DNA from: Chrysomallon squamiferum
Lineage: Eukaryota; Animalia; Mollusca
NCBI GenBank assembly: GCA_012295275.1
Contig: CM022674.1
Coordinates: 16,368,001 to 16,432,000 of the forward strand
Length of the DNA stretch: 64,000 bases
Direction: 5' to 3'
Shown: piece by piece, positions 5,974 through 53,954 of the stretch
Layout: every line of letters begins with the position of its first letter
Position numbering within the stretch: position 1 is the stretch's first letter
Notes under the pieces: model-generated
Seen by the model: the letters and a program-made list of their open reading frames with translations, nothing else
The model's database searches: none
Told to the model about the DNA's origin: nothing
Translations under genes and position numbers: made by a program

Positions 5974-6173
5974 NNNNNNNNNNNNNNNNNNNNNNNNNNN
6001 NNNNNNNNNNNNNNNNNNNNNNNNNNNNNNNNNNNNNNNNNNNNNNNNNNNNNNNNNNNNNNNNNNNNNNNNNNNNNNNNNNNNNNNNNNNNNNNNNNNN
6101 NNNNNNNNNNNNNNNNNNNNNNNNNNNNNNNNNNNNNNNNNNNNNNNNNNNNNNNNNNNNNNNNNNNNNNNNN
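5974..6173. other. Assembly gap (200 N)
   Basis: Run of N. Confidence 1.
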
Positions 6174-14433: not shown

Positions 14434-16944
<2,511 letters not shown>

Positions 16945-29302: not shown

Positions 29303-32300
29303 TTAGTTACTATCTTTAGCTGCATACTCCAATAAAAAGGAAACAGTTTCATTTATATCGCTGTAACTCTTAGCTATTTCAAGAGGAGTTTCACCTTGGC
29401 CATTTTTAACATTTACATCAGCACCTTTTTCAATCAGTGCTGTAACAATTTCTACATTTCCATCTTCAGTTGCTAAGTGTAAAACAGAATTATTATCATT
29501 GTCTGTCAAATTAGGATCAGCTCCTTGTTTTAGTAAATACAAAAATATGTTGTAAAGGTCAAACTCAACAGCTGTAAAAAGAGGAGTTTCACCTTGCATA
29601 TTCCTTATATTTACATCAACACCTTTTTCAATCAGTGCTGTAACAATTTCTACATTTCCATTTTCAGCTGCTAAGTGCAAAACAGAATTGTTATGATTGT
29701 CTGTTAAATTAAGATCAGCTCCATGTTCCAGTAAAACCAAAGCTACGTTTGTCTTAGAGGACACAGGTGGATCTTGTAAAAAATGAAATTTATTGTAGTT
29801 CAGAAATGTAAAAAGAGGAGTTTCACCTTTCATGTTCTTTCCATTTACATTAAAACCTTTATCAATCAGTGCTTTCACAATTTCTACATTTCCATGTTCA
29901 GCTGCTAAGTGTAAAACAGAATTATTATCATTGTCTGTTAAATTAGGATCAGCTCCATTTTCCAGTAAAACCAAAGCTACGTTTCTCTTAGAGGACACAG
30001 GTGGATCTGCAAAACGAAAACATTGATAGTATTTCAGAAATGTAAAAAGAGGAGTTTCACCTTTCATGTTCTTAGCATTTACATCAACACCTTTATCAAT
30101 CAGTGCTTTCACAATGTCTACATTTCCATGTTTAGCTGCCAAGTGTAAAACAGAATTGTTATAATTTTCTGTTAAATTAGGATCAGCTCCATTTTCCAGT
30201 AAAACCAAAGCTATGTTTGTCTTAGACAACACAGGTGGATTTTGGAAAAAAACTAAATTCTTTGTGTTTCACACATGTTAAAAGAGGAGTTTCACCTTTC
30301 ATGTTCTTAGCATTTACATCAACACCTTTATCAATCAGTGCTTTCACAATGTCTACATTTCCATGTTTAGCTGCTAAGTGTAAAACAGAATTGTTATAAT
30401 TGTCTGCTAAATGGGGATCAGCTCCTTGGTTTAGTAAATATAAAGCTATTTCTGGTCTGTGACAACTCAAAGATACATGAAGAGGAGTTTTCTCTTCAAT
30501 GTTAATTGCATTTATTTCAGCACCCTTTTTTGTTACTTCTTTCACAACATCTATGTCAATTTTAGAGGCTATGTGCAATGCTGAATTCTCGTAGTAATCT
30601 TTTATATCGGTATCAGCACCTTTCTTCAGTAACAACAAAGCTACTTCCCTTCTGTGTGTCACTGCGTTTACAGCTTCATGAAGTGGAGTGTTTCCCTTAC
30701 TGTTTACTGCGTTAACATCAGCATTTCTCTTTATCAGTGATTTTATCATATCTAAGTCACCACGCAGAACTGAAATGTGGAGGGGTGTGTATGAAGGCAA
30801 CAATTCTACATTATTTTCATCTTCAAACAACTGAATCAATTTCTGATTAACAGCTACATTAACATTAGGATCAGCTCCCTTATAAAGAAGACACTGAACA
30901 GCACATGCACTGTTAAACATCACTGCTGCTTTCAGTACTTGACTTTTCTTCCAGTTCTCATCTGTATCATTACATCTCTGCTCAAGGAGAAAATTCACTG
31001 TATCAGTAGCTCCCCATACTGCTGCTGCTAAAAGTAGTTTATCTCTGTTCTCATCATTTAAACAATCAGGTTTCAGTTTTACTATTTCTTTTATAACACC
31101 AGAATTACTCTGACAAGCAGCAATAATAGCAATGTGTATAATTTTGTTTATTATATCAATGGTAACCAGTTTTTTAAAAAGATGGCTTACATCAACAACT
31201 TCAGCAGTATTCGACTCCCAAAAATGCCAATATTCTGAATCAAGTATTACTTGTCTATGGAACCTAACCAATAGCAGTTTAATGGCTTTTTCCTTGATTT
31301 CACTGTTGTGTTTCTCATTTTTTATCATTTCAGCTAACATACATGCAATTGTCATATTACCTGAACAAATAGAAACAAGTAAGAGATGTGAATAGTCATG
31401 GAATTTCCTCTCTGTTTCACACTGTAACAGTTCTTTGAGTATGGTAGCACTGTCTGTTTTTGAACAAGCAGCTACCCGCAATGTATCAAATGCTGGAATA
31501 ACACCTGATTTTAGCAACGTTCTCACAACATCTTCATCACCAAACAAACAAGAAATATTCAAAAGTTCTTTTTTCAGATTTGTTAATTTCATTTTACACA
31601 GATTTTCAGTGAAAAATCTTGACAATGTTTTTAATCCCTTCACAATACATTCACTTTGAACAGATGGCGAAATTTCAAAATGTGTTTCAGTGTGCAAATG
31701 CATATTAATAGAACACTCTGAATAACTTTCAAGAAGACATGAAATATTGCTAAATATTTCATCAAGATTGTCTACATTTACAGATGATATATACAAATGT
31801 TCATCTTGATCTTTATGTAGTTGTTGATGAACTATTTTAAACAATTTATCATTAAAGTATTTTTTCTCTATGAGATACTTCACAAACTCTTCATCTTTCA
31901 ATGATGGATGTGAAATAATGTCTTTGGCATTGCTTGATGCCAACAAGTCAGTAAATCTCCGAGCAAGAACATCAAAGCAGTTAGGTTTCACAGTCATTGT
32001 AATGTGACTTTTGTTAGACACTCCAGGCGTCACAACATATTCTAACAACATGGAGACAGGACACAATTCTAACAACTCTGCTGCTTTTTTTGGAAACTGT
32101 GATGCATACATCAGAAACAATGAGTCAAACACTGACTGGTGAATAAATGTGTATTCATTGTCGGAACACTTCAAATAGGTACCACACATTTCATCAGCTG
32201 TTTTCTTTATAGCTGTGAGACCAGTGTTCAGACCAGTATTCAGACAGGCTTTCTCTAGCAGTCTTACTAATTTCATTATGTCGCTGTCGGTGTCATTTTC

Positions 32301-33088
32301 AAATGGGTCCAGTGAATCAATCCTGAGACTGTCTTGTTGAAACAAGATCAGCAGTAGAACCAGGTAATTGATCTGTGAAGATTTATCATTTTTCAAATTT
32401 TCCAGTTGTTCTCTGAGATATTCTACAGGTTTCTGAAAAAACTCAACTCCTCTTTTCTGTGCATCACTTGAATTAACATAATACAGACACACCTGAGGAA
32501 ATCCTAACTTTGTACATGAGCAGAAAATGACAGTAATTTTATAAGCTTCATCCATTCTAACATTCTTTTGTTCAAGATATCTGTTTAGAATTTCTAGCTT
32601 CTCATCATAATTCAGACAACATTCGTCGCTCTGCAGGTCAAGGATATGATTTTCATTGAACAGATCAAATTCCTTTAGATTAGCTATACTTTCTGTAAAT
32701 ATTTGTTTTCTTAAAGTAATAATACATCTCACACACTTGTCTTTAACAAGACTCCACACCTCTGGAAATAGCTGTTTCCAGCACGAAACAAAATCTAATA
32801 CAAGATTAGTTTTACCAAATATGTCATCAATGAGAACAATACATGGTTTATCTTTAGACACAGGAATGTATTTGAAATCAGAGTGATGAGTCACGATGTA
32901 AGAGTCTATTTTTTCTTTTTCTCTATCTGTTTAATCATGTTCAGACCTAGAGTTGTCTTTCCTGAACCTGGACTTCCTACTACAATAACAACAACATTTC
33001 TTTTTCAAAAGTGTTAGTCCTCTTTCTTCTGCTCTTGTTTCAACATAGACTCTCCAGTCAACTGAGTTTAACTGTGACCTGGTAGAAT
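29303..33088 (-). CDS. Large terminal exon: nSTAND3-type P-loop NTPase + helical region + ankyrin repeats (three 1-nt indels)
   Basis: Acceptor at 33089-33091. YVETRAEERGLTLLKK; Walker A VIVVGSPGSGKTT (GSPGSGKT at 32954-32977); Walker B PCIVLIDDIFG; GFPQVC; FIHQSVFD; then many TPLH/SVLHLAA..G..ADVN ankyrin repeats to TAA at 29303. Indels at ~32990, ~32915 and ~30250. Confidence 0.88.
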
Positions 33089-33364
33089 CTGTATCACAAC
33101 ATTTAAAAAAATAATATCTATTATTAACATATTTAAATATATTTCACTATTTAGATATAGATAATATAATTTTAAACTAGTCATCAGATGTGAAACTTTT
33201 AAAATAAAGCAGCAATTTTTTGTTATAATTTTTGGACTTCATCAGAATTTAATGATAATACCATATCACAGTTTTAGATGCTGCAAAAATAACATAATGA
33301 TTATCTTCTTATAAATTAACATCTTTCAGAAGTAAAAAAAAAAATAAAATAAAATAAAAAATAC

Positions 33365-33397
33365 CTTTCATATGGGACGCTTGTCCATCAGTCTTTG
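33365..33397 (-). CDS. Exon 6 (33 nt, phase 1-1) of the NLR-like gene
   Basis: cag|CAAAGACT...ATGAAAG|gtat; open, KTDGQASHMK. Confidence 0.7.
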
Positions 33398-33628
33398 CTG
33401 AAATGATATAAAAAATAAAACAAGTAAATTTATATTACTGATGATGAGAGCAAAAGAGAAATTATTAAAGTGAAATATACAGTTACTCTGTACTTCATTC
33501 ATGGAACAGTCAACATATAACATTATTATTATCTTTCTGATTTATTTTAGTAGAATTATTACTACTAGTATTAAAACTACTGCTGTTGTTTTTTCTCACT
33601 ATTGTTACTTAGTTATTGTTATTGTTCA

Positions 33629-33674
<46 letters not shown>

Positions 33675-33783
33675 TTTTTTGTGTTTTTAATAATTGCAAG
33701 TGAAAATAATGACATATATATTGGCTTGATTAATGTATGCTGAATTCTCTTAAAAAAAAAATCTAGATAAGATTGATGGCACT

Positions 33784-33848
<65 letters not shown>

Positions 33849-34333
33849 ACGTCATAAGCACATAAGACAAAAAAGTGCGCTGGCGTAACATTTGTTATTA
33901 TTACTGTTATTTAATTATTATTTTACAAACATTAACAAATCATAAACTTCAAACATTTTAGTTCCAAATTATAAGCACTCCTAGGTAGTCCATGACTTAA
34001 GTTTCTTCAAATTGTACGACGAGTGTTAGGAGGGCTGCTTTGGATCTCACAGATTTGGGAAATTTTTAAATTACTGATTGTCCAGCACTAACATGTGTTA
34101 TGACATTTTCCATATGGAACTGTTCTAATCTGATTGCTTCAATATTAAACTGTTCAGTTTCACAACTTACAAGCATTATTTCTCAGATCCATATGTAAAT
34201 CATCCACTGCACACAGTATGAATAAAATCTGTCATTTGTTAGTATTATTGAATAAAACAATATGTTTTAAAAAATGTATAATAGTCTTTATATTAAATGC
34301 CTGCATCTCTGCGTTCGTGAGTTTTTGAGGTTT

Positions 34334-34364
<31 letters not shown>

Positions 34365-34810
34365 TGTCTATGTTTGTGTGAATATTGTTCAGGTCACAGA
34401 ATCTGATAGAAAAATACTAATCACTATTTTGATGCATATTCTAATAACAGGCAGGCAAAACAAATGTTTCCATTTTCGACTTGCTAATTAAATATTTTTT
34501 TCTCCTAATAGAACATTTCTAAAGTGAGATATATCTTAGTCACCCAGGCCAATGTTGTTGATGTGATGAATGGCAGTTTAATTTTATCCATGAGCAAGCT
34601 ATCATTCAGCATAGCACAAAATTTTGTACACAACTCATGTGAACTATATGGTCGTTCACACAATTTGTGCACTCTTGGTGGGTAGGCATGTATGTATGTA
34701 TTATATCTGTGTTTGCTTGTGCTGGTCATAATGTTTGATATTAAAATACTACCGATTAATGTGACATATATTTCTGTAATCTATTAAGAATATTTTGGTG
34801 TTTAACTTAC

Positions 34811-34909
34811 TGGTTTTCACAGCTTCATCTCCTAATACACTACTTCTGTTACTTGATAGATTTGTATCTGTTCTCATATTTACATTACGTTCTACCACTG
34901 CTCGTTCTG
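34811..34909 (-). CDS. Exon 5 (99 nt, phase 1-1) of the NLR-like gene
   Basis: tctgtttgcag|CAGAACGA...AAAACCA|gtaagt; open, ERAVVERNVNMRTD...AVKT. Confidence 0.7.
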
Positions 34910-35497
34910 CTGCAAACAGAAAAATAAATTATTTAAACTCACAGCCTACAAGTGTTATTTCTAAAATTGTCTGTAGCTACATATAGAGCATACAGTATCA
35001 AAAATGTGTTTGTGTGTGTGTACTTTTGCATATATCACCAGCTATTGCTAAAACATGCATATTGACATAAAATAATGAAAATGACAATTTAAGAAGCAGT
35101 TTCTAAAAACAAAGGTGAGCAAAAATGTCTAACTGCACATAATAGCATATCACAGTATCCTTGGATAGTGTACTGGTTACTGGTTGAGATAGGTCACACA
35201 TGACAGGTGGGCTTTGTATTCTGGACAACATTAATAGGTTCAAGAAATTTAGTCAGTGTTTCATTTAATGAAAAATAAGTAATTTTGTTATGGTAAAATG
35301 TAGCTATGTAGTTGCTAGAGGTCAGCACTGCAGTAAAATTACTTCTAAACAGTAACTGAGTAAGCTATGTTATGCAGCTTGTCTGTTAATCAATTTACTT
35401 GAGTAGTTTTACTTGTGTAGTTCACTGCTGTTTTATCTTACATCCAGTAAGATCATGTGAACCAAAACAGGATAAAACTTCCATCAAGTTTACAAAT

Positions 35498-35532
<35 letters not shown>

Positions 35533-35823
35533 CATATTCATATATATACATATATACATACATATATACATACATATATATACATATATACATATACAAT
35601 ACATACATACATTGATACACATATATACATTCTTCTCTGTGCTTTACTCCTACAGTTTATGTTAATAAAGTCATTATCATTGTGACAATTGTAGAGAAAA
35701 CTTTTTGTGGCACTTTATCATAACACAATCTCTTAGAAAGCAAGTCAGCACCAATGAAAACTCCAACTATACATATATATATATACAAAAAAAATGTATA
35801 ACGTGTATATATATATATATGTA

Positions 35824-35855
<32 letters not shown>

Positions 35856-36269
35856 TATTTGTGTGTATGTATGTATATATGTATATATGCATATGTGTGT
35901 GTGTGTGTGTCTGTATGTTCTTATATTTATATATAAGAACATACACACCAAACTCGTAAGTACATACATTGTTATTAACTATATAAAAATTAGGATCTTT
36001 ACTTTTGTGTACTAGAAGATGTTTTCCTAAGATTTTTCATATAACATTCTTATTACGTCTTCTGATTTATGTTACTATAATTATTACTACTAGTATTAAA
36101 ACTACTGCTTTTTTTTTGTTCTCACCATTGCTATTTAGTTATTGTTATTGTTTTATTATTATTATTATTATTATTATTATACACACATACATACATATAT
36201 ATATACATATAACCATATATACATACATACATATATACATACAATCATATATATATATATATATATATA

Positions 36270-37702
36270 TACTCCCAAAAAAAAAACGCAAAATGGTTGA
36301 TTTGTTAGATAACTATTGTAAACTGACACATATCAATTTACAGACTATGAATATAATGACATTTCGTGATTCAAACGTATAGCTTTTGTTACTGTCAGAA
36401 AAAAAGCAGGTAACACAAAATAAAGAGGATGATCGTCTTTATTAGGCAAAACGTCCCCGCATGGAAACCATGTTACCAGTGCATGTGCATTTGCAGCACA
36501 AGAAACTTGAATACGAGGGTTATAAAAAGGCAAGGCTTTCGAAAACTTCTGTTCGTTATCTTTGTTCTGACCCAACATCAAACAAATGCCACGACTGAGT
36601 GAACCACAATTTACAAGCTGGCGAATCCTTCTCGGCCGCAGCCCAGGTGTTCCATGTATCCCCAAGCACCATCTTGAGATTGTGGTATTGGTTCCAGCAA
36701 CACCAAACAACGCATGACCGTCCCAGATCAGGTAGACCACGTGTAACCACCAGGGCCCAGGGCCGCTACATAGGGTACTTCATCTACGGGAAAGAACCAC
36801 TACTGCTACCTCTACTGCTTCAGCAATACCAGGTCTGCGTAGAATATCGGCTCAGACAGTGCGCAATCGTTTACGCGAGGCAGGTATTCGAGCCAGACGG
36901 CCTGTAAGAAGACTGGTTCTGACTCAACAACATCGTCGACTACGACGTCAGTGGTGTCAACTGCACAGAGTCTGGCCTCAGTTACAATGGAGAACTGTCT
37001 GGTTTAGTGACGAGGCTCGATTTCAACTTCGTCAAGCTGATGGAAGATGTCAAGTTTACAGACGTCATGGTGAACGTTTTGCTGCAAACTGCATACAGGA
37101 AGCGGAAACTTTTGGCGGTGATAGTGTGATGTTGTGGGCAGCAATCTCATACACTGGCAGGACCAACCTGGTTTACATCCAAGGCAACATAATGGCACAG
37201 AGATACCGAGATGAAATTTTTTTGCGACAGGTCGCTCCAATTATGAATAATGGTAACGCTGTATTCCAGCACGACAATGCGAGACCACATACAGCCAGAC
37301 TCACAACAGTGTACCTACACAACAATAACATTCAAGTCCTGCCGTGGCACTCTAAATCTCCGGATTTGAACCCTATAGAGCATTTATGGGTCGAGTTGGA
37401 TAGACGACTGAGGCAGCATCAACCACAGCCACAGAATCATTCTTAGTTGGCATTATTACTACAGACAGTGGGCCATGGGAAGAAGATGTCAGGAAGTTTT
37501 GGACTCCCATGATGGGCACACAAGGTATTGATATTATACTGTTATAACGTTGAACTTTAACCTTTTCAATGTAATACCATCAATATTAATGAACTGCGAA
37601 AGTGTGTGTAAAATGTGAACATTCTGCTGCTTTCTGTTCATCCATTAGATAGATATTCCCAATGTCAATAAAATCTACTTTTGCATTTCTTTTTGGGGAG
37701 AA
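36270..37702 (+). mobile_element. Near full-length Tc1 (DD34E) transposon in an intron of the NLR-like gene
   Basis: Imperfect ~30-bp TIRs (ACTCCCAAAA..CGCAAAA / TTTTGCATTTCTTTTTGGGGAG) in TA context. HTH..RSGRPRVTT N-terminus; WFSDE..HDNARPH-(34)-SPDLNPIE. Frameshifted, with a premature stop. Confidence 0.92.
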
Positions 37703-37999
37703 TATATATGTACACAGACACACACCCACAAACATTACCATTTCAGTGTACATGTACTTCTTAATTCTATGATAAAAAAATTCCTGAATGTTTCGGCAAA
37801 TTATTGATTAGGTATTCTATTGTAATGCTACTTATGAATGTTTACAGTTTTTCTTAGCAAATATGTTTCTTGTGATGACATGATGACATCAATATTAAAA
37901 ACATCAAAATACATGCATGATATTATTGGAAAGGATGTTATATGTGAATGCCAAATATATTCGTATCTCAGAATTTGGACTCGTCTCCTTTGAACTTAC

Positions 38000-38086
38000 T
38001 AATTATCTTGTTTTTGGCTCCTATTTGAACATTTCCACAGTGATGTATGTTTACTGTTTGTTTTACAAGTTGTATTTTTTGAGTAT
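38000..38086 (-). CDS. Exon 4 (87 nt, phase 1-1) encoding a RHIM-like motif
   Basis: ctctttcacag|ATACTC...ATAATTA|gtaagt; translation DTQKIQLVKQTVNIHHCGNVQIGAKNKII. Confidence 0.8.
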
Positions 38087-38610
38087 CTGTGAAAGAGAAT
38101 AAATACATTTTTAAGAATAGAATACAGTATTAATAAAATCAATTAAAAGTATTATTGCATATAACAATATATCATTTAAAAATGTTTTTAACTGATTATG
38201 TGCAGGTGCTATGAAATAAGTATTACTTCATAGTATTAAAATGTATAACAGTAAATACAAAATTAATTAGAATGGTTATGATGAACTAACAAAACAGTAA
38301 CTAGAGTGTATTTTACTTTACTGTTTTAATCTGTAAAACAAAACGGCCATAACAAAGTATAAACTTAATTCATTATCAGTATAACTTTTAAAAGTGTCAG
38401 TTTACTAATGCCTAAGATGTAACTAAACAATACATTCAAACACTGTATTGATACAAATGTAATATGTACTTTTGTCAGTTTAGAATTTACCATCAATAAA
38501 CAATACAATATACTGAAATATTCTATTATAACAAATATAAAAATAATGTTGACTCTTTATAATTTCTTGTTAAAAAAGTAAACAGTACATTTAAATACTG
38601 TGTGTGTTAC

Positions 38611-38912
38611 CATGACTGCTTGACACAGGTAGTTGTAAATGATGTTCTGTACGAGTGATGTCCAAGGAAGACTGAGATGTGATGCCAGAGAGAGATAGAC
38701 TTGACATATTGTCTAAGAGAGACACAGCTGTCACAGTCTCTGCAGAAGAAACAGCTGTCACAGTCTCTTCAGAAGAAACACCTGTCACATTCTCTTCAGA
38801 AAAAACAGCTGTCACAGTCTCTACAGAAGACACAGCTGTCACAGTGGACGAAACAGCTGTTGTGTTAGAAGAATCTTCTGAACTCTCCTTTTTGACATCT
38901 ATATTGGCTGAG
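38611..38912 (-). CDS. Exon 3 (302 nt, phase 2-1), Ser/Thr-rich with 27-nt TVTAVSSEE repeats
   Basis: ttttttacag|CTCAGCC...CATG|gtaac; open frame; acceptor conserved in the duplicate at 3853. Confidence 0.75.
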
Positions 38913-39448
38913 CTGTAAAAAATATGATTGTTTTATATATATAAGGAAGAAAAGAAATGTGTTATTTACTTATTTTATTTACTGTTATACCGGGTCAGAC
39001 ATAAGATTTAGGAACAGTCAGAAACCCACAGCAGTCACTTCACCTGTCTACTCTCTCTTATTAACAACAAGTTATGTTTAATTTATACCTACCTACAAAC
39101 AGTAAAAACTATACATCAGGTGTTGAGCACTGCTAAAATGAAATCAGGTCAAGATTCCATCAGCAGGAATTGATCCAAATATCTACTACACCTTTCAAAC
39201 TTTACTAGAGACCTACATCTAGTACCTTGTATTAATACCAGCATTGACTCATAGACTGTATTCTCAATTTGGTTCTATAAATAAATGCCTCAAACATTTT
39301 TTTAAAATAATGAAATAAAAAAAGGCTTAAAATAAATATCCCCATTTTTTAAAAAGAGGTGTTTGATCATGTTATTGAGAAATACTCAAGAAAACACAAT
39401 TTTTCAATACTGTTACCTAAAACCATAGTTCTAATTAATTAATCTTAC

Positions 39449-39568
39449 CTCATTTTGGATTTGTTCTTTTCCTTCTTTTTAGAGGGTGGTGATGGGGTAA
39501 CTGGGGCAGGTTCTGACTGTGGGTTCCTCTGTTTCTCAGCTGTTCTGCTGCTTTGCTCTGTAGTCAAA
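39449..39568 (-). CDS. Exon 2 (120 nt, phase 2-2), Pro/Lys-rich
   Basis: tttcag|TTTGACT...AATGAG|gtaag; both splice sites and the frame are conserved in the duplicate at 3203-3322. Confidence 0.78.
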
Positions 39569-42500
39569 CTGAAACACACAGATTTACTAGTGATATTCCA
39601 CATTTTTCTAAACATTACCAACATAGATGAACAAAATAAACAGAACAGTTGTCAGAAATAACAGTAAATGACAAAAGCAGTGCACTGTAACAAAAGTCCA
39701 TGGAAATTACTGCACTGCCATTAAATTGATTAATTTAGGATTCATGATATCAACTTTCCATTTAGTGCATTTTTCAAACTGAAACCACATACCAACATCA
39801 GTCTGCATACAGAACGGAAAGTCATAAAGGGATGATCTGTGAGTAACAATGTTTAATTTTGAAACATGCAGAATTGTATCAGCTGGGTCAGTTCAGATAG
39901 TTGAGGATTCAGATTCTTGTGAGGCATCATATGAATAATATTATAATCAATTCCTATCTTAGTTTTGTCGGACCTATTACTAAATTATACAAAACAGTAC
40001 AAATATAACTATACCATGAATATTTTTACTAAGTAATATTCTTAGTCTTGTCCACTGTACTAAATTATTTTATATAAACAATACAAATTAAAATATTACA
40101 AATATACACCTGAACAAAATGAGTGAAAACATGACAAGTAATTACAAAGTTGTGATGATTGAAAACAGAATGATGTTCCATGTTTCTGAATGACAGTTAC
40201 AACTGATTTCACTGTGTAGGCCATTGTATGATGTGTCCTTGTTTTTCTTAACTGCAGCATGCTCACATATCAGATTTTCAACTCCATTGTTTAGCACATC
40301 TCTCATTCAGTGTCAACTTCGCACAATGGTGAACATGATAAACACAAAGATGACACAAAATAAGAATGCATTCAACAGTTATGCCTCAAACCTACAGGAC
40401 ATTAGTTTGACAACAATTACCGTCATCAGTCCATTAGTGACCTCAACACTACATCCAACAAGTGCTGTAACTCTTCCTTAGTACTTATTTAAAATGTAAT
40501 TTGTTGAAATAAGTCAGTATGAACATCTCTGATACTTTATATGATGGTGAAAAAACTGTTATATCTATTAAATAAGTATTGTATGATTATTCTTCAGTAT
40601 TGTGTCTGTTTGTATATAAATATACTTTCAGAATTTGTAAACTTCAGCTTTCAATAATCTGCTACACTCTTCATTCCAAACCTTGATCAATTCATGATTT
40701 CATGTTAATTTACAGACACATTTTATTTGTGCAGTGTTTGAAACTGTCATCTTAATACACCACCAATACAGTAGTGACATCTACGAATAGAACAGTGTTC
40801 AACCATTATCATACTATGTACAAAGACTTTCTTTATTTACTATTTTTTTTTTTTTTAAAGACGATTTCTCCACACCATATATATACATGTATTTGTAAAA
40901 TAAAATAAAAAATAAAGTGTTAAGGTTTTTTCATTCAGTTAAATATGATTCTAGAGTAATTATAATAACCTATGATTGTGTATGAACATGTATTCCTTCA
41001 CTTAAACATTAAATGTAAATGTATTTTCAAAATAATACTAATAGTCTTTACTTTATTGTGTTTCTAAATTGTTTAATAGATTACTGAATGATAATTTTTC
41101 TACACTAAGTATAAAAATGTATATCAGATTGAAGATATACACACACACACACACACAGCTTCACTGCAAACAAATATTTTCTTCACTGTGTCAAGACAAA
41201 ATGAGTAAAAACAGCTGTATTTATGCTTCAAAGTGTTTGGATTAAAGTTAGTGTCACCTTACTGGGGTTACTTCATTACATAATGCTTGCTGAAAACTGA
41301 TTAAATATTTGATGAAAGCAAAGAATATTCAGTGACTGAAAACATATCAACTTATTTTCTTTTTTAAATGAATTACAAGTGACAGTCATTTTGTTATCTT
41401 GGAAAAAGAAAAAGAACACTGATCAGAGTTTCCACTTACAAACTGTTCAGTAAGTCCTGTTACTTCATTTTTGAAATGTAGATAGATAAATAAATAGCAA
41501 CAAAGGAAACATTGGTTAACTAAGGTAAAAATTAATTTTATTCATTATTAACTATTTCTGATATCAGAGACAAATATGAAATTTGCTTAATGAAGTCAGT
41601 GTAAGTTAGTTTATGTAAAGGTTGAAAACTGTTAAAGAAATAATTATAAGTAACAAACTACAACAAGAATTAAAAGTTATTTTTTAATAAATCCTGGACC
41701 TAGCCTGAGACTGGCTTTGACAACTAAAGTTGTATCTGTATTGTACTGTACATTGCACACTTATAACATTAAATGTTAATGTAACTAATTTAAACAAACA
41801 GAACATTTACTTACAATTCAGTTTAACCCATCTTTATACATTAGCTGCTGTATGTTAAACCAGTTGTCTGTAACTGACCATACAACTCTTCTGTCCTGTC
41901 AATAGAACAATACAAAACTTACACACTGATTTACCTTGCTTCATAAAATAACATTGTCTAGTAAGACTTTCTTTTATTATTATTATTATTACTATTGTAA
42001 TGAAAGAACTGCTGTCATTTGACAAAAAATATTAATAAAAAAGTAAAAACATGTATAAAAAAGGGGAATTAAGCACCAAGAGGAACAAAATACTGAAAAA
42101 CTAAAATTAAAAATAAATCTGTTATAACTGCCATTTTTTCCAAAATCAGTATAAAAAATCATTAACACACTTGAAACTGATGCTTAAAATATAATTGTAT
42201 TTATTTATTTATGTATTTATTTATTTATTATCAATGTAACATGGAACTGGTTAATTTACAAAATAAAATGTTATGAACCAAATCTAGTACAGTAAAAAGT
42301 CATACTTTAAAAAACTATTTACTAGTGTATTTGTAATATACCAGATTTGTTTCAGTCACATGATAGTTTTATCTGTACACAAGTTGTTGAGATAACATGT
42401 CTACCTGTATTCTGACTGAAAACATTAGATGATTCCACAAGTTTGACATCTGAAAGTGGATGTATAACCTTGTCATAGCTGAACATCGTGAAAACAAACA

Positions 42501-43423
42501 TTCTTAATAACTTGAGTGAATATCTGCTGTCATTTGAGGACATAAATTTAAGATTAACCACAGATACAGAGATGAATTCTCTTTTATAAATAATTTACTG
42601 AATTACTCATCACCTCCATTTGCTGTTGTTTAACACTCACTGCAGAATTACCTATGTACATCGATATATTACGCTCAAAACAATTACTTATTTATAATTC
42701 AATGTACCCCATCTTTAGATTCTTGCAATTGTATGTTAAAGCAGTTGTTTTAACTGATCATATAACTTTTCAGTCTTGCCAGTAGAATAACACAAAAGAT
42801 TTCAAATTATTAAAATATGTGCTAATGTTCATTTAGAAAAAAAAAAAATGAAATTTAATACAATAAAAAAAAAAACATTTTCTTTCCTAAAACAACCACA
42901 CAACAACAGAATCCAAACTCTTAAAAACTGAGAGTTATAATTAGAAGAGACAGGATGAAATCTTGGAAGTTTTTTGGTATCAAAATTGTTGTTACATTAA
43001 ATTGTCGTGATAAAATAATTTCACATTTTTGGGCCAAAAAATCCAGATACCTAGATAGCAAGAAAATCCAAATAGCTATGTAGAAAGACAATTCTCTTGT
43101 GTCTACTGTTTTAGTACACGGTCATCTAGTTTATGTACATGCATGTGGGATTACAATTTGATTAAGACATTGAAAGGTAAAATACAGGTGTGTGAAATAC
43201 AATTATTGTTACTGTTGTTGTTGTTATTAATTCAATTTTTTAATGCTTGGTTAAGAAACACTAGAATTAAACATGTTCATAACTCACTGTACTTTTTTAT
43301 TGTTCTCTAAGACTACTGAGTGGGCGAAAACTGGTTACATTTTAATTCTCTCATGTGTAAGGGTTTTTAATTAAATTAAGTAGGCCTAAGTACATAATAC
43401 AATACAGTATAAGTTTTCCTTAC

Positions 43424-43452
43424 CAGCAGTAGTGACACAACTTATTCGCCAT
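43424..43452 (-). CDS. Candidate first coding exon (MANKLCHYC-C)
   Basis: gagATGG start context, 29 nt, TG|gtaagg donor; phase 2 matches exon 2. Confidence 0.45.
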
Positions 43453-44230: not shown

Positions 44231-47200
44231 GATAAAGTTAGTATTATGGTTAGATTTAGTTATCTGTTTACCTTATGACTAGGGTTAAAGTTAGTATTAT
44301 GGCTAGATTTAGTTATCTGTTTACCTTATGACTAGGGTTAAAGTTAGTATTATGGCTAGATTTAGTTATCTGTTTACCTTTTGACTAGGGTTAAAGTTAG
44401 TATTATGGTTAGATTTAGTTATCTGTTTACCTTATGACTAGGGTTAAAGTTAGTATTATGGCTAGATTTAGTTATCTGTTTACCTTATTACTAGGGTTAA
44501 AGTTAGTTTATATTTAGATTTAGTTATTTGTTTTACCTTTATTTTAGGGTTAAAGTTAGTATTATGGTTAGATTTAGTTATCTGTTTTACCTTATTACTT
44601 AGGTTAAAGTTAGTTATTATGGTTTAGATTTAGTTATTTGTTTTAAATTTATGACTAGGGTTTAAAGTTAGTATTATGGTTAGATTTAGTTATTTGTTTA
44701 CCTTATGACTAGGGTTAAAGTTAGTATTATGGTTAGATTTAGTTATCTGTTTACCTTATGACTAGGGTTAAAGTTAGTATTATGGTTAGATTTAGTTATC
44801 TGTTTACCTTATGACTAGGGTTAAAGTTAGTATTATTATTATATTAGATTTAGTTATTTTTTTTTACTTATATGACTAGGGTTAAAAGTTAAAATTATTA
44901 TATTATTTTAGTTATTTGTTTTACCTTTTACTTTACCTTATGACTAGAGTTAAAGTTAGTATTATGGTTAGATTTAGTTATCTGTTTACCTTATGACTAG
45001 GGTTAAAGTTAGTATTATGGTTAGATTTAGTTATTTGTTTACCTTTTGACTAGGGTTAAAGTTAGTATTATGGTTAGATTTAGTTATTTGTTTTTACCTT
45101 ATGACTAGGGTTAAAGTTAGTATTATGGTTAGATTTAGTTATTGTTTTTATTACTTTAAAGTTAGTTATTATTAAATTTTAGTTATTTAGTTTATTTATT
45201 AAAGTTATTATATTTAGGTTTAGATTTAGTTTTTGTTTTTTTTAGGGTTAAAGTTAAATTATGGTTAGATTTAGTTATCTAGTTTTTATTTACTAGGGTT
45301 AAAGTTAGTATTATTATTAGATTTTAGTTATCTGTTTTATTATAGGTTTAAATACTATTAGATTTAGTTATTTAGTTTTTATTATACTAGGTTAGATTTA
45401 GTTATTATGGTTAGATTTAGTTATCTTTTACCTTATGACTAGGTTAAAAAGTTAGTATTATGGTTAGATTTAGTTATCTGTTTATCTTTGACTAGGGTTA
45501 AAGTTAGTATTATGGCTAGATTTAGTAATATGTTTACTTATTACTAGGGTTAAAGTTAGTATTATGGTTAGATTTAGTTATCTGTTTACCTTATGACTAG
45601 GGTTAAAGTTAGTATTATGGCTAGATTTAGTTATCTGTTTACCTTATGACTAGGGTTAAAGTTAGTATTATGGTTAGATTTAGTTATCTGTTTACCTTAT
45701 GACTAGGGTTAAAGTTAGTATTATTATTAGATTTAGTTATTAGTATTTTATCTTTTTTAGTTATCTGACTTTAGGGGTTAAAGTTAGTATTATGGTTAGA
45801 TTTAGTTATCTGTTTACCTTATTTACTAGGGTTAAAAAGTTAGTATTATGGTTAGATTTTAGTTATCTGTTTTTATGACTAGGGTTAAAAAGTTTAGTAT
45901 TATGGTTAGATTTAGTTATCTGTTTATTTTTTACTAGGGTTAAAAGTTAGTATTATGGTTAGATTTAGTTTATCTTTTTACTTTTTAAATATAGTTTTAA
46001 GATTTAGTTTATTACCTTTTTAGTTAAAGTTAGTTATTATGGCTAGATTTAGTTATCTGTTACCTTACCTTAGGGTTAAAAGTTAAGTTTATTATGGTTA
46101 GGTTAGTTATCTATTTACTGTTTACCTTATTAGGGGTTAAAGTTAGTATTATGGTTAGATTTAGTTATCTGTTTACCTTATGACTAGGGTTAAAGTTAGT
46201 ATTATGGTTAGATTTAGTTATCTGTTTACCTTATGACTAGGGTTAAAGTTAGTATTATGGTTAGATTTAGTTATTTGTTTACCTTATTACTAGGGTTAAA
46301 GTTAGTATTATGGTTAGATTTAGTTATCTGTTTACCTTATGACTAGGGTTAAAGTTAGTATTATGGTTAGATTTAGTTTTTTTTTTACCTTATGACTAGG
46401 GTTAAAGTTAGTATTATGGTTAGATTTAGTTATTTGTTTACCTTATGACTTAGGGTTAAAGTTAAAGTATTATGGTTTAGATTTAGTTTATCTTTTTTAT
46501 CTTATTTTACTAGGGTTAAAGTTAAAGTATTATGGTTTAGATTTAGTTTATCTGTTTACCTTTATACTACTTAGGGTTAAAAGTTAGTATTATGGTTAGA
46601 TTTAGTTATCTGTTTTTACTTATGACTAGGGTTAAAGTTAGTATTATGGTTAGATTTAGTTATTTTATTTTTTTACCTTTTGACTAGGGTTAAAAGTTAT
46701 TATTATGGCTAGATTTAGTTATCTGTTTTACCTTATTAGACTAGGGTTAAAGTTAGTATTATGGTTAGATTTAGTTATCTGTTTACCTTATGACTAGGGT
46801 TAAAAAGTTAGTATTATGGTAGATTTAGTTATCTTTTTACCTTTAAAAGTTAGTATTATGGTTAGATTTAGTTATCTATTATTATTTACTAGGGTTAAAG
46901 TTAGTTATGGTAGGTTTATTTATCTTATTTACCTTATTATTATGACTAGGGTTAAAAGTAGTATTATTAGATTTAGTTATCTGTTTACCTTATGACTAGG
47001 GTTAAAGTTAGTATTATGGTTAGATTTAGTTATCTGTTTACCTTATGACTAGGGTTAAAATTATGTTAGTTTAGTTATGGTTTAGATTTATTTTTTAGTT
47101 TAAAGTTAGTATTATGGTTAGGGTTAAATCTTTTTACCTTATTATAGGGTTAAAATTAGTATTTGGTTATATTTAGTTATCTGTTGTTATTACTAGGGTT

Positions 47201-50200
47201 AAAGTTAAATTATTATTAGATTTAGTTATTTGTTTATCTTTTTTTACTTTATGTTAAAAAAGTTAGTATTATTATTATGGTTTAGATTTAGTTATCTGTT
47301 TTACCTTATGACTAGGGTTTAAAGTTAGTATTATGGTTAGATTTAGTTATCTGTTTACCTTATGACTAGGGTTAAAGTTAGTATTATGGTTAGATTTAGT
47401 TATTATGTTTATTATGACTTATCTTAAAGGTTTAAAGTTAAAGTTAGTATTATGGTTAGATTTAGTTATCTGTTTTTACCTTATGACTAGGGTTAAAAGT
47501 TTAGTATTATGGTTAGATTTAGTTATCTGTTTACCTTATGACTAGGGTTAAAAGTTAGTATTATGGTTAGATTTAGTTATCTGTTTACCTTATTTAGGGT
47601 TAAAGTTAGTATTATTTTAGATTTAGTTATCTGTTTTAAATTTTATTTTATGGTATTTAGGTTAAAGTTACTAGGGTTAAAGTTATTATGGTTAGATTTA
47701 TATATCTGTTTTACCTTATGACTAGGGTTAAAGTTAGTATTATGGTTATTTTAGTTTAGTTTATTTGTTTACCTTACTACTAGGACTAAAAAAAGTTAGT
47801 ATTATGGTTAGATTTAGTTATCTGTTTGTTTACCTTATGACTAGGGTTAAAGTTAGTATTATGGTTAGATTTAGTTATCTGTTTACCTTATGACTAGGGT
47901 TAAAGTTAGTTTATTATTATTTTATTAGATTTATTATTTATTTTATTATTTACCTTTTACTAGGGTTAAAGTTTAGTTATGGGTTAGATTTAGTTATCTG
48001 TTTACCTTATGACTAGGGTTAAAGTTAGTATTATGGTTAGATTTAGTTATTACTTTTTAGGGTTAGTATTATGTTTTAGTTATTTTTATTACCTATACTA
48101 GGGTTAAAGTTAGTTATTATGGTTAGATTTAGTTTATTTATTTACCTTATTAGGGTTAAAGTTAGTATTATGGTTATTTTTAAGTTTTACCTTATTATAT
48201 ATTTACTTTAAATTAGTATTTGGTTAGATTAGTTATATTTTATTATTTTAGGGTTAAAAAGTTAGTATTATGGTTAGATTTAGTTATTTATTACCTTTTT
48301 TACTTAGGTTAAAAAGTAAAATTATTATGTTATGGTTTAGTTTATTATCTGTTTACCTTATGACTAGGGTTAAAAGTTAGTATTATGGTTAGATTTAGAT
48401 TTAGTTATCTGTTTACCTTATGACTAGGGTTAAAGTTAGTATTATGGTTAGATTTAGTTATTTGTTTACCTTATTACTAGGGTTAAAGTTAGTATTATGG
48501 TTAGATTTAATTATCTGTTTACCTTTTGACTAGGGTTAAAGTTATTATGGTTAGGGTTAAAGTTAGTTTATTAGTTTACCTTTACCTTAGGGTTAAAAGT
48601 TAAAGTATTATGGTTAGATTTAGTTATTTGTTTATCTTATTTACTAGGGTTAAAGTTAAAGTTTATGGTTAGATTTAGTTTATCTGTTTTTTCCTTATGA
48701 CTTAGGGTTAAAGTTAGTATTATGGTTAGATTTAGTTATCTGTTTACCTTATGACTAGGGTTAAAGTTAATATTATGGTTAGATTTAGTTATCTGTTTAC
48801 CTTATGACTAGGGTTAAAGTTAGTATTATGGTTAGATTTAGTTATCTGTTTACCTTATGACTAGGGTTAAAGTTAGTATTATGGTTAGATTTAGTTATCT
48901 GTTTACCTTATGACTAAGTTAAAGTTAGTATTATGGTTAGATTTAGTTATTATATTTTTAGTTATTTGGTTAGATTTAGTTATCTGTTTATGACTAGGGT
49001 TAAAGTTAGTATTATGGTTAGATTTAGTTATCTGTTTACCTTATGACTAGGGTTAAAGTTAGTATTATGGTTAGATTTAGTTATCTGTTTACCTTATTAC
49101 TAGGGTTAAAGTTAGTATTATGGTTAGATTTAGTTATCTGTTTACCTTATGACTAGGGTTAAAGTTAGTATTATGGTTAGATTTAGTTATCTGTTTACCT
49201 TATTTTTATACTAAAGTTAGTATTATTATGGTTAGTTATTTGTTTTATTACTTTTTTACTTAGGGTTAAAGTTAAATTATGGTTAGATTTAGTTATCTGT
49301 TTTTACCTTATGACTAGGGTTAAAGTTAGTATTATGGTTAGATTTAGTTATCTGTTTACCTTATGACTAGGGTTAAAAGTTAGTATTATGGTTAGATTTA
49401 GTTATCTGTTTACCTTATTACTAGGGTTAAAAGTTAGTTTATATTAGATTTAGTTATTGTTTACCTTATGACTAGGGTTAAAGTTAGTATTATGGTTAGA
49501 TTTAGTTATCTGTTTACCTTATGACTAGGGTTAAAGTTAGTATTATGGTTAGATTTAGTTATCTGTTTACCTTATGACTAGGGTTAAAGTTAGTATTATG
49601 GTTAGATTTAGTTATCTGTTTACCTTATTACTAGGGTTAAAGTTAGTATTATGGTTAGATTTAGTTATCTGTTTACCTTATGACTAGGGTTAAAGTTAGT
49701 ATTATGGTAGATTTAGTTATCTGTTTACACTTATGACTAGGGTTAAAGTTAGTATTATGGTTAGATTTTAGTTATCTGTTTACCTTATTACTAGGGTTAA
49801 AAGTTAAAGTTAGTATTATGGTTAGATTTAGTTATCTGTTTACCTTATTACTAGGGTTAAAAAGTTAGTATTATGGTAGATTTAGTTTATCTGTTTACCT
49901 TATTTACTAGGGTAGGGTTAAAGTTAGTATTATGGTTAGATTTAGTTATCTGTTTACCTTATGACTAGGGGGTTAAAGTTAGTATTATTATGGTTAGATT
50001 TAGTTATCTGTTCCTTATTATGACTAGGGTTAAAGTTAGTATTATGGTTAGATTTAGTTATCTGTTTACCTTATGACTAGGGTTAAAGTTAGTATTATGG
50101 TTAGATTTAGTTATCTGTTTACCTTATGACTAGGGTTAAAGTTAGTATTATGGTTAGATTTAGTTATCTGTTTACCTTATGACTAGGGTTAAAGTTAGTT

Positions 50201-50931
50201 ATTATTTAGTTATTTGTTTACCTTATGACTAGGGTTAAAAGTTATTATGGTTAGATTTAGTTATCTGTTTACCTTATGACTAGGGTTAAAGTTAGGTTAG
50301 ATTATGTTATCTTTATGACTAGGGTTAAAGTTATTTATGGTTTTTTAGTTATCTTTGTTTACCTTATACTAGGGTTAAAGTTAGTATTATGGTTAGATTT
50401 AGTTATCTGTTTACCTTATGACTAGGGTTAAAGTTAGTATTATGGTTAGATTTAGTTATCTGTTTACCTTATGACTAGGGTTAAAGTTAGTATTATGGTT
50501 AGATTTAGTTATCTGTTTACCTTATGACTAGGGTTAAAGTTAGTATTATGGTTAGATTTAGTTATCTGTTTACCTTATGACTAGGGTTAAAGTTAGTATT
50601 ATGGTTAGATTTAGTTATCTGTTTACCTTATGACTAGGGTTAAAGTTAGTATTATGGTTAGATTTAGTTATCTGTTTACCTTATTACTAGGGTTAAAGTT
50701 AGTATTATGGTTAGATTTAGTTATCTGTTTACCTTATTACTAGGGTTAAAGTTAGTATTATGGTTAGATTTAGTTATCTGTTTACCTTTTGACTAGGGTT
50801 AAAGTTAGTATTATGGTTAGATTTAGTTATCTGTTTACCTTTTGACTAGGGTTAAAAGTTAAAAGTTATTATTATTTAGATTTAGTTATCTGTTTTATCC
50901 TTTATGACTAGGGTTAAAGTTAGTAGTATTA
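44231..50931. repeat. 53-bp satellite array, ~6.7 kb (~125 units), running into a gap
   Basis: Consensus GACTAGGGTTAAAGTTAGTATTATGGTTAGATTTAGTTATCTGTTTACCTTAT; period 53 (44281->44334). Confidence 0.97.
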
Positions 50932-51131
50932 NNNNNNNNNNNNNNNNNNNNNNNNNNNNNNNNNNNNNNNNNNNNNNNNNNNNNNNNNNNNNNNNNNNNN
51001 NNNNNNNNNNNNNNNNNNNNNNNNNNNNNNNNNNNNNNNNNNNNNNNNNNNNNNNNNNNNNNNNNNNNNNNNNNNNNNNNNNNNNNNNNNNNNNNNNNNN
51101 NNNNNNNNNNNNNNNNNNNNNNNNNNNNNNN
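50932..51131. other. Assembly gap (200 N)
   Basis: Run of N. Confidence 1.
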
Positions 51132-52123
51132 TGTCTACCTCTGTTCTGACTGAAAACATTAGCTGATTTCACGTTTGATATCTGAAAGTGGATGTATAAC
51201 CAATTCATAGCTGAACATGGTGAAAACAAAAATTCTTAATGAAACAGTGAGTGAATATCTGCTGTCATTTGAGGACATACATTTAAGATTAACCACAGAT
51301 ACAGAGATGAATTCTCTTTTATAAATAATTTACTGAATTACTCATCGCTTCCATTTGCTGTTGTTTAACATTCACTGCAGAATTACCTATGCACATCAGT
51401 ATATTACGCTCAAAACAATTACTTATTTATAGTTCAATGAATCCCATCTTTAGATTATTGCTATTGTATGCTAAACCAGTCGTTGTAACTGATCATATAA
51501 CTTTTTCAGTCCTGCCAATAGAATAACACAAAACATATATATGTTTTCGAATTATTAAAGTATGTGCTCATTTTCATTTACAAAATAAAATAAAATAAAT
51601 TTAATACAATAAAAAACAAAACATTTTCTGTTCTAAAACAACAACAACAACAACCAAAATCTCAAAAACAGAAAGAGTCATAATTACAAGAGACAGGATG
51701 AAATCTTGGAAGTTTGTTTTATATTTATCAAAATAGTTGATACATTTAATTTTCCTGATGAAATAATTTAACCTTTTTGGGCAAAAAATGCAGGTACCTA
51801 GAGAGCGAGAAAATCCAAATAGCTATGTAGAAAGACAATTCACCTGTGTCTACTGTTTTACTACAGGGTCATCTAGTTTATGTACACGCATGTGGGATTA
51901 CAATTTAATTAAGACATAGAAAGATAAAACACAGGTGTATGAAATACAATTATTATTATTATTGTTGATGCCTGGTTAAGAAACACTCAAATTAAACATG
52001 TTCGTAACTCAGTGTACTTTTTGGTTGTTCTCTAAGACTATAGAGCGGTCAAAAGCTGGTGTCCATTTATCACCCAACCCATTATTACACCAACTTTAGT
52101 TGAGCACCAATGTAAGCATTACA
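51132..52123 (-). repeat. Third copy of the NLR-gene intron block: close inverted copy of 88-1080, more diverged direct copy of ~42398-43316
   Basis: Shares 88-171 (CACCCAACCCATT..CACCAACTTTAGTTGAGCACCAATG) only with the window-start copy. 52945-53190 also matches 43940-44180. Confidence 0.88.
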
Positions 52124-53206
52124 AAGAATTTGCACATAAAATGAAATAACTGGTTACTGTCTTTTCATATCTGTTTTATAATGGTCAGGCTCAATGTTTA
52201 ATGTCTCAGTGCAGTTTTTTATTTTTTCAAATATCAAAACGCAGTAACCTGTTATTTCCCGTGTGTGTGCGATTTTGTTGTTCAAAGTGACTAGGTTAAA
52301 TATACACAGGTAGGCTTATAAATATATGGGGCACCTTTTCAAGGATTGCCTCGGAAAACAAAGGGATTTCTGTCCTACATTAAATAGTATGAATTTCAGT
52401 TTATAGGGCACTAATAGTCAGGAATATTAATTTTATTTGTCCGTTTACTTTCTTAATTACTTTCAAAATATTGTTATACGAGACTGAAATAAGCAAATTT
52501 GGAATATTTATTTCATCTCTGTTTTCCTTCAAAGCAAAATATTAAATACTGTATCAAAAAGTAATAAAAATAAAGTAAACCAAAAAACAACAAAAAAGCT
52601 TGTAACAGAATAAAATGCACTTAGCAGTAGACAGTCAAGATCAAACAAGAGTGATCTTTATTTCAGGTATATACTCTATACAAACTGGAGAGGGGTGAAA
52701 CTCTTAAAAAATAAATAAATAATAATAATAATGTGTGTATGATAAAGCATTTGTCTAGTAAAGTTGTTAAGAAATGCTTTTTAAACAACTAAATGAACAA
52801 TGTCTTGCTTGTCTTGCTGTATGTACAACATGCTGGAACATGAACAATGCTACTACTACTTATAATCCCAAACATTACGTCATCCGACACACAGTTATGG
52901 ATGACGAATACCATTAAATCATGTGGGACAAGCAATAAGATAAAAATTTGACGTCTAATCAACTGAAACACTTTAAGGTGGAATAAACAAACGGGCACAG
53001 TCGTAGGAAGAGAATAACCCTGTTGTTATACTGACTGTTAAAATTAAATTAAAAAAAAAAAGACATTTTAAGAAAAACTCTCAGAAACGTTAACTGAAGA
53101 ATAAAGGTAAAATAAATAAATAAAAAAAAACAAAAAAAACAACAACAACAAAGAAACAAACACAGACTGGTACTGGGCAAATGCCCTCCCAGTATAAATA
53201 ATAATA

Positions 53207-53704: not shown

Positions 53705-53951
53705 CACATAGGATGCCATCCCCCTCTCGAATCTCTCCTCCAGTCCCCCCAAAACCAATTCGCATTTCTAGTTCAACAGCAAATACTTCCAACACTTCAC
53801 AAATACCCACTTCACATAGGATGCCCCCCTCTCGAATCCCTCCTCCAGTCCCCCCAAAACCATTTCGCATTTCTACTTCTACAGCAAATACTTCTACCAC
53901 TTCACCAGTATTTCACAGTTCTACTTCAACAGCAAATGCTTCCAACACTTG
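53705..53951 (+). pseudogene. Inverted fragment of the PARP C-terminal Ser/Thr/Pro tail
   Basis: HRMPSPSRISPPVPPKP..HRMPPSRIPPPVPPKPFRISTST matches the reverse complement of 61802-61975. Confidence 0.85.
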
Positions 53952-53954
53952 TTT

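Follow-up and report, generated by a model that had tools for sequence, protein, structure and literature searches.

The window analysed here is the whole 64,000-nucleotide stretch of contig CM022674.1 (Chrysomallon squamiferum, assembly GCA_012295275.1, positions 16,368,001 to 16,432,000), and all coordinates below are positions within it. On its minus strand, from 43452 to 29303, lies a gene for an nSTAND3 NTPase with ankyrin repeats. The gene is real: seven predicted exons, with a GT donor and an AG acceptor at all six introns and phases of 2, 2, 1, 1, 1 and 1, end in a large nSTAND3-ankyrin exon. This bears out the first-pass annotation, made from the sequence alone, which had joined six small exons to the NTPase-ankyrin exon in those same phases. 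The fourth small exon encodes a RHIM-like peptide that appears to belong to a motif recurring in related proteins. The features of the gene are as follows.

43424..43452, minus strand: exon 1, predicted; ATG at 43452, phase 2; GT donor, open frame
39449..39568, minus strand: exon 2, a P/K/S-rich low-complexity segment; AG/GT, phase 2-2
38611..38912, minus strand: exon 3, S/T/V-rich; AG/GT, phase 2-1
38000..38086, minus strand: exon 4, 87 nucleotides, RHIM-like motif; core VQIG at 38030-38019, amino acids 170-173
34811..34909, minus strand: exon 5, linker; AG/GT, phase 1-1; joined to exon 6 in two RNA contigs
33365..33397, minus strand: exon 6, 33 nucleotides; AG/GT, phase 1-1; RNA loose end at 33397
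29303..33088, minus strand: exon 7, nSTAND3 NTPase, helical and winged-helix region, ankyrin repeats and stop; from Pfam, tblastn and RNA contigs
32571..33050, minus strand: nSTAND3 domain (PF20720, E 2e-11; Walker A frame E 1.2e-4)
31830..32570 (approximate), minus strand: predicted helical domain and winged-helix region of the STAND module, from an AlphaFold2 model and structural matches
29306..30860, minus strand: ankyrin repeat region, PF00023 in 4 + 5 stretches (at least nine)
32997..32999, minus strand: frameshift 1, a surplus base in an A run immediately ahead of Walker A
32915..32918, minus strand: frameshift 2, one base missing just after Walker A
30246..30252, minus strand: frameshift 3, a surplus base, most probably located in a T7 run of the ankyrin repeats

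Exons 1 to 6 encode 223 residues, among which S, T, V, K and E are abundant and F/Y occur twice, and no convincing Pfam domain was found in this N-terminus except RHIM on exon 4 (exons 1 and 6 being too short for the scan). Exon 3 includes a 27-base-pair repeat present 4.7 times (tandem repeat 38720-38845), and a paralogous copy of exon 2 with identical splice sites is found at 3202-3321 on the plus strand. Intron 1 contains two similar exon-like segments of 110 base pairs (41807-41917 and 42688-42797, minus strand), which also occur in paralogous copies; the frames inspected contain stops, and the segments are possibly decayed or untranslated exons.

Profile searches recovered the nSTAND3 and ankyrin domains that the first-pass annotation had named. 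Even without the Walker A frame, nSTAND3 scores 44.3 bits against a curated cut-off of 27.2. Walker A (GSPGSGKT, 32977-32954) and Walker B (IVLIDD, 32840-32823) are both intact, but lie in different frames of the assembled window. An AlphaFold2 model was obtained for the 420 residues after Walker A, without the Walker A strand (48 sequences, predicted local distance difference test score of 84). Its best structural matches are MalT (Z 9.7, root-mean-square deviation 4.7, 258 residues aligned), NLRP9 (8.2), NLRC4 (8.0) and Apaf-1 (7.7); these are modest Z values, but every one of the nine leading rows is a STAND or NLR-type entry. Foldseek by itself was weak, with one match at E 0.001 or better, and a PDB sequence search with the NTPase core gave no relevant match. 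As modelled, the NTPase is followed by a helical domain and a winged helix, as in STAND NTPases. The NACHT profile reaches 16.2 bits on a P-loop fragment, short of its cut-off of 26.7, and no LRR family was matched in the Pfam scan; ankyrin repeats are present instead, including a 234-base-pair unit repeated 3.6 times (tandem repeat 29573-30425, 89% matches). Judged by these profiles, the protein belongs to the nSTAND3 family of STAND NTPases rather than to the canonical NACHT-LRR NLRs, although it is NLR-like in the broad sense.

In the assembly, exon 7 is not one open frame, and the first two of its three frameshifts bracket Walker A. Spliced as assembled, the reading frame runs into a stop at codon 276. 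The product of about 1480 amino acids given by the first-pass annotation is reached, but only by reading through all three frameshifts, which that annotation had missed. Reads were compared in four runs (two likely DNA and two RNA, from two studies) out of nine listed. At frameshift 2, all four contain the extra base, with 65.8 of a depth of 71.1 in run X1 and all depth in runs X2, X8 and X9; absent from the reads, this frameshift is shown to be an assembly error. At frameshift 1, contigs from X1 (DNA) and X8 (RNA), compared by eye, run in frame into the P-loop. At frameshift 3, the affected repeat copy measures 43 bases between anchors, against 42 in two sister copies. There are no in-frame stops across the 888 and 313 codons between and after the breaks, and tblastn of relatives covers exon 7 with frame changes. 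An unrelated PARP exon in the same window (62312-62814) is likewise split over two frames. Because break 2 is absent from the reads, the settings are homopolymeric and the PARP exon is also split, the breaks are read as assembly errors, which for frameshifts 1 and 3 is likely. Treating the 902-amino-acid and 321-amino-acid open reading frames as two genes was rejected, since a single repeat array crosses the break.

Exon 4 encodes the peptide that the first-pass annotation had placed there, within a low-complexity N-terminus. The RHIM identity proposed for it stands in part: RHIM is the sole Pfam family that exon 4 matches among 24,736, and the score against PF12721 (17.7 bits, E 0.0027) is under the 20-bit cut-off. 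The peptide is thus best described as RHIM-like. It contains the core tetrad V/I-Q-V/I-G, which PMC12119088 gives as the RHIM consensus, in the form VQIG, about 68 amino acids N-terminal to the NTPase in the spliced model. Kajava et al. 2014 (PMC4262963) give the RHIM cores of RIPK proteins as GIQIGA and GVQVGD. The G-phi-Q-phi-G core of RHIM, PP and BASS3 is matched by exon 4 except for an N in place of the first G. The tetrad by itself was rejected as evidence, as its count is at chance level (two in the six frames of the window against 2.2 expected); the only other strict tetrad is antisense to a fibrinogen exon. An extended RHIM pattern, written after the peptide was known, occurs in none of 100 simulated windows. 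Protein searches with the 47-codon frame around exon 4 (84-2000 amino acids and 25-83 amino acids) found no spliced product, and a DNA motif scan of metagenome contigs found nothing.

The junction 34811/33397 of the first-pass annotation is supported by RNA: two contigs of run X8 have a loose end at 33397 in which 29 of 30 letters, compared by eye, agree with the end of exon 5. The X8 loose ends at this position have a median length of 225 bases, of which only 30 letters are visible. This is long enough to contain exons 5 and 4, and the exon 4 junctions stay predicted. RNA libraries may hold DNA, but both RNA runs have zero depth in two bins spanning 33138-33355, within the last intron, which argues against a DNA origin of these contigs. 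By a simple splice score of our own, exon 4 comes out on top of the 130 AG..GT segments lying between exons 3 and 5 that are open and compatible in phase, and we infer that it is included in the transcript.

Searching 50%-identity representatives with the NTPase core yielded 598 relatives at E 0.001 or better, of which the best 150 were analysed. The named relatives among 30 looked up are all molluscs, with Gigantopelta aegis nearest (up to 47% identity), followed by Haliotis, scallops, Mytilus, Solemya, Mercenaria and freshwater mussels; judged by these relatives, the window most likely comes from a gastropod. In a quick tree of 71 rows, the gene clusters with six Gigantopelta proteins with a Shimodaira-Hasegawa-like approximate likelihood ratio (SH-aLRT) value of 99. 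Contigs resembling the gene at 90-95% identity are numerous and further partial copies lie inside the window, which together indicate a multicopy family; the same-species copies in the window end before exon 4. The N-terminal slot of the relatives is variable, and contains a caspase domain (P0016), HEPN_DZIP3 (P0049, P0098), SAM (P0059) or Death (P0065, P0069), while many relatives have a low-complexity tail there.

A motif was learned from 66 N-terminal segments with Walker A at residue 70 or later, with near-duplicates removed, this gene excluded and residues grouped into 13 classes; this reduced-alphabet run was a second attempt. The best 10-column motif, roughly I/V-x-x-A/C-x-N-x-x-I/V-G, scores 41.5, compared with 20.9-26.8 in 20 shuffled sets with equal starts. 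In this gene it selects amino acids 164-173 of exon 4 at 12.4 bits, a value reached by 3 of 2000 shuffles; for motifs learned from shuffled sets, the best figure on exon 4 is 9 of 300. All eight top motifs printed pointed to exon 4, with between 0 and 325 of 500 shuffles as good. As the relatives are not mutually independent, these shuffle tests overstate certainty.

Other comparisons concern the same region. In two relatives (P0012 and P0013) the best local alignment to the N-terminus of this gene falls on exon 4, and between relatives the best N-terminal local alignment is a short motif block in 6 of 16 pairs, as judged by eye. By our own labelling, four of the six grouped Gigantopelta proteins carry the motif. 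A hand-written register score reaches at least 13 in 6 of 72 N-termini, compared with 1 of 72 control segments and at most 2 in 200 shuffles, but it is given little weight because it was written after the sequences had been read. A phmmer search of exon 4 against the 72 N-termini gave only two matches at 4 bits or more. In the top-scoring relatives, the distance from motif to NTPase varies from about 30 to 145 amino acids. On sequence comparison, then, the exon 4 peptide appears to belong to a motif that recurs in relatives, which strengthens the proposed RHIM-STAND-repeat architecture. A family-wide motif that was learned without this gene and points to the same peptide is what is new in this analysis, and is the part most worth following.

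Three side observations were made among the relatives. In P0016 (XP_048241358.1, Haliotis rufescens), a caspase domain is fused ahead of nSTAND3 and ankyrins, which makes it an animal STAND receptor with an all-in-one caspase architecture. P0010 (XP_041374024.1) and P0018 (XP_048254161.1) have long N-terminal arrays before nSTAND3, made up of 10-residue and 14-residue repeats with a high content of N, G, T and D, and the array of P0010 could be a beta-solenoid or an amyloid-prone region. In the P0036 cluster (Haliotis rufescens LOC124125868), RefSeq short isoforms of 198-219 amino acids are listed alongside forms of 1865-2688 amino acids, which suggests that N-terminus-only products may exist in the family.

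The closest animal precedent is the amphioxus (Branchiostoma) protein BF82280, a RHIM protein described in silico as sharing the fungal NWD2-type architecture of motif, NACHT and repeats (Kajava et al. 2014, PMC4262963). Both proteins have an animal RHIM ahead of a STAND-class ATPase and repeats, and both are known from sequence only. BF82280 is NACHT-type, from a cephalochordate, and one named protein, whereas here nSTAND3 and ankyrins are combined in a mollusc and the motif pattern extends across the family. Oyster nSTAND3 and ankyrin proteins with TRADD-N, HEPN and transmembrane (TM) modules are recorded in Kaur et al. 2021 (PMC8195603, Fig. 4 source data). They share the NTPase family and the sensor with the present gene, as well as lineage-specific expansion and variable N-terminal modules. 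No RHIM annotation on molluscan nSTAND3 and ankyrin proteins occurs in the main text of that paper, with supplement file 4 covered in part and file 13 not searched; two occurrences of RHIM in the supplement are letters that happen to fall together in alignments. In the pearl oyster, NACHT proteins bearing HEPN or death domains are also described (PMC9646362). In the literature searched by title and start of abstract, with most subscription journals and bioRxiv supplements outside that scope, no RHIM on a mollusc STAND or nSTAND3 protein was found. The proposition that RHIM on an animal STAND protein is unprecedented was rejected because of BF82280. The contrast with canonical animal NLRs drawn in the first-pass annotation was likewise overstated, as the amphioxus RHIM-STAND protein and the molluscan nSTAND3 and ankyrin proteins precede it; given both, the present gene is a variant and no new category.

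Outside animals, the fungal PNT1/HELLP and NWD2/HET-S systems and the bacterial BASS3 NLR/Bell system (PMC12881547, bioRxiv 10.1101/2020.01.06.895854) also combine a short RHIM-like motif, a STAND NTPase and a repeat sensor in one chain. In these systems too, the motif is N-terminal to the NTPase (here in the predicted spliced model), and receptors with a motif and without a folded effector have sister receptors with all-in-one folded effectors. Unlike them, the present gene is in an animal host, has nSTAND3 in place of NACHT or NB-ARC, carries the motif at about amino acids 160-175 on its own exon, away from the extreme N-terminus, and has a predicted amyloid role. The RHIMs of RIPK1, RIPK3, ZBP1 and TRIF and the insect cRHIM (VxxG) (PMC4262963, PMC12119088, PMC13506858) share with the peptide the V/I-Q-V/I-G core, a downstream N and an upstream hydrophobic strand, and are set in flexible surroundings, as the peptide probably is too. 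There the motif is on a kinase, a Z-alpha or a TIR protein, and here on a STAND receptor. The degenerate core of most relatives is closer to the cRHIM definition than to the RIPK type. Avs5 (Sir2-nSTAND3-repeats, PMC12931631), in which Walker A is required for immunity, has the same nSTAND3 switch and C-terminal repeat sensor; it differs in being bacterial, with an NADase effector in cis and TPR-type repeats, and its structural match here is weak (9jap, Z 5.3).

A candidate partner class exists in molluscs, in the form of the RIPK1 RHIM and of CARD+RHIM genes. In the zebra mussel RIPK1 C-terminus, RHIM is needed for full NF-kB activation in human cells (PMC12119088), and an iridovirus of cockles, which are bivalves, carries a CARD+RHIM gene resembling bivalve genes (PMC12452177).

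Taken together, it is rather probable, if far from certain, that the gene is one copy of a multicopy gastropod NLR-like gene in which the predicted RHIM-like peptide is an amyloid-type signalling tag replacing a folded effector, and that its frameshifts are assembly errors. From the observed exon anatomy, domains, motif similarity and family pattern, we infer all later steps as follows. The ankyrins would bind a pathogen or damage ligand, as the NLR architecture suggests. Nucleotide exchange would then lead the STAND module to oligomerise, as expected from STAND biology and from the fold of the predicted model. The RHIM peptides, clustered in this way and each tethered about 68 residues away by a flexible linker, could nucleate a cross-beta seed. 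This seed might template a distinct RHIM protein, for which a mollusc RIPK1-like kinase or a CARD/death-RHIM adaptor is the most plausible candidate, and the templated partner might activate NF-kB or cell death. Since related short motifs recur before the same switch in other molluscs, these receptors likely signal via amyloid-type fibres, as in fungi, and the most likely mode of action is one like that of a fungal PP/RHIM-type NLR. A broader generalisation is possible but rather doubtful: that mollusc nSTAND3-ankyrin receptors bear either a folded effector (caspase, death, HEPN or SAM) or a diverged RHIM/cRHIM-like amyloid tag that templates its own effector, the tag of this gene being the closest to the RIPK-type RHIM.

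If this were true, signalling through amyloid seeds would for the first time be seen in a large set of animal NLR-like receptors. Templating from NLR to effector by amyloids is established in fungi and bacteria, and animal RHIM amyloids are established for kinases, adaptors and PGRPs; the sole animal RHIM-STAND precedent found is a single in-silico example. The present gene supplies a peptide with a canonical core, and RefSeq proteins of Gigantopelta, abalones, scallops and mussels supply diverged tags. Amyloid signalling would also tie mollusc STAND receptors to the RHIM-dependent RIPK1/NF-kB route seen for a bivalve protein.

Several results weigh against this reading. An initial motif search with the 20-letter alphabet and 69 segments overfitted and missed exon 4, with 1388 of 2000 shuffles as good. 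The VQIG conservation expected from the first-pass annotation was not found in other species: the strict (I/V)Q(I/V)G tetrad is present in 1 of 66 relatives with long N-termini, and it is a looser register that is conserved. Pfam RHIM was detected in none of 46 distinct relatives scanned whole, although such scans are insensitive for a short motif. In this gene, the RHIM score, already below its cut-off, drops to 14.6 bits within the longer, 47-amino-acid frame, and phmmer of exon 4 against PDB sequences gave no match at E 10. Pairwise alignments of the N-terminus with relatives gave none that was clearly significant (best 14 of 300 shuffles, 10 pairs). The motif and a folded effector do not significantly exclude each other: a score of at least 10 bits is reached in 18 of 56 compared with 1 of 10 (p 0.20 by Mann-Whitney test; effector labels were assigned by eye in five cases out of eleven). 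Within the 30 visible loose-end letters, neither exon 4 junction (38611/38086 or 38000/34909) was seen in reads. Unlike the fungal and bacterial pairs, no RHIM partner gene was found in the window, which has two gaps. Overall, the observation of the first-pass annotation is partly confirmed and its interpretation partly supported: the RHIM-STAND-repeat architecture holds and is strengthened by the family evidence, but three frameshifts had been silently read through.

It is unlikely, though worth serious consideration, that the peptide is instead a conserved short beta-strand motif with a non-amyloid job, such as docking to a folded partner or to the STAND module of the same receptor, or that an N/I/V/G-rich linker resembles RHIM by chance, and that the protein is an effector-less sensor co-oligomerising with caspase-, death- or HEPN-bearing paralogs. 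The sub-threshold Pfam score and the rarity of the tetrad in relatives would fit this, as would the looseness of the learned motif, whose discovery hinged on alphabet and regularisation, and the presence of effector-bearing paralogs in the family. However, RHIM remains the only match among all the Pfam families scanned, and the motif is found in low-complexity sequence at variable distances from the NTPase, an arrangement that would suit a tethered polymer seed more readily than an intramolecular latch of fixed position.

The remaining alternatives concern the gene model rather than the motif. If break 1 were real, translation would end at codon 276 in the last exon, and the gene would be a young pseudogene or truncated decoy whose product, a low-complexity protein of 275 amino acids with RHIM only, could compete with intact paralogs or seed them. 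The assembled sequence does read that way, and broken 5' copies in the window are as expected of a birth-and-death family. Frameshifts 1 and 3 are without direct read evidence: no contig shown spans either for this exact copy, and the in-frame X1 and X8 contigs at frameshift 1 differ elsewhere in a paralog-like manner, so that they are not direct evidence here. This explanation is nevertheless quite unlikely, given that break 2 is missing from all four runs, that long stop-free frames lie between and after the breaks, and that each break alters a single base at or next to a homopolymer run, in a window where a neighbouring unrelated gene is also frame-split. A different 5' end, with extra exons in the 3.9-kilobase intron 1 or upstream adding a folded or membrane-anchoring domain, would make the RHIM an internal accessory motif. 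Exon 1 has no read or paralog support and is based on its splice site and ATG context alone; the close relatives P0001 and P0008 begin with a hydrophobic, membrane-like segment; and the oyster nSTAND3 and ankyrin proteins (PMC8195603) bear TM and TRADD-N modules. Set against this, exons 1 to 6 connect in frame and gap-free, and the exon-like segments in intron 1, read by eye, contain stops, which leaves such a 5' end very unlikely. The preferred reading remains that of a RHIM-tagged receptor gene with an assembly-damaged last exon.

Other features of the window include one transposon remnant within the gene.

36255..37700, plus strand: Tc1/mariner transposon remnant, inside intron 4 (DDE_3 E 1e-14, HTH_Tnp_Tc3_2)

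A second Tc1/mariner copy is at 18407-19480. A paralogous copy in inverted orientation (141-3997, plus strand), covering intron 1, exon 2 and the beginning of exon 3, is about 86-91% identical, and is broken inside exon 3 by unrelated repeat-like sequence, ahead of the RHIM exon, with an assembly gap at 5974-6173 after it. A third intron 1 copy (51132-52132, minus strand) adjoins the gap at 50932-51131. At the right end of the window (63628-64000, minus strand) the sequence immediately following the stop codon recurs in a 91% copy, which, with the third intron 1 copy, suggests a further paralog just outside the window and a local cluster. A 6.7-kilobase satellite with a 53-base-pair unit and strong strand skew (44233-50929) is located directly upstream of exon 1 and ends at an assembly gap.

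The PARP catalytic-domain exon (61710-62814, minus strand; PF00644, E 2.9e-12), in two frames, is followed by an S/T-rich tail with 39-base-pair repeats, and about 3 kilobases of its flank are duplicated in inverted orientation near 53705-56738 (92-98%). Finally, a gene with PAN/Apple and fibrinogen C-terminal domains (FReD-like lectin) is found at 14434-16995 on the minus strand, with a second copy at 8183-9432 (about 83% identity); these are further immune genes in the same window.

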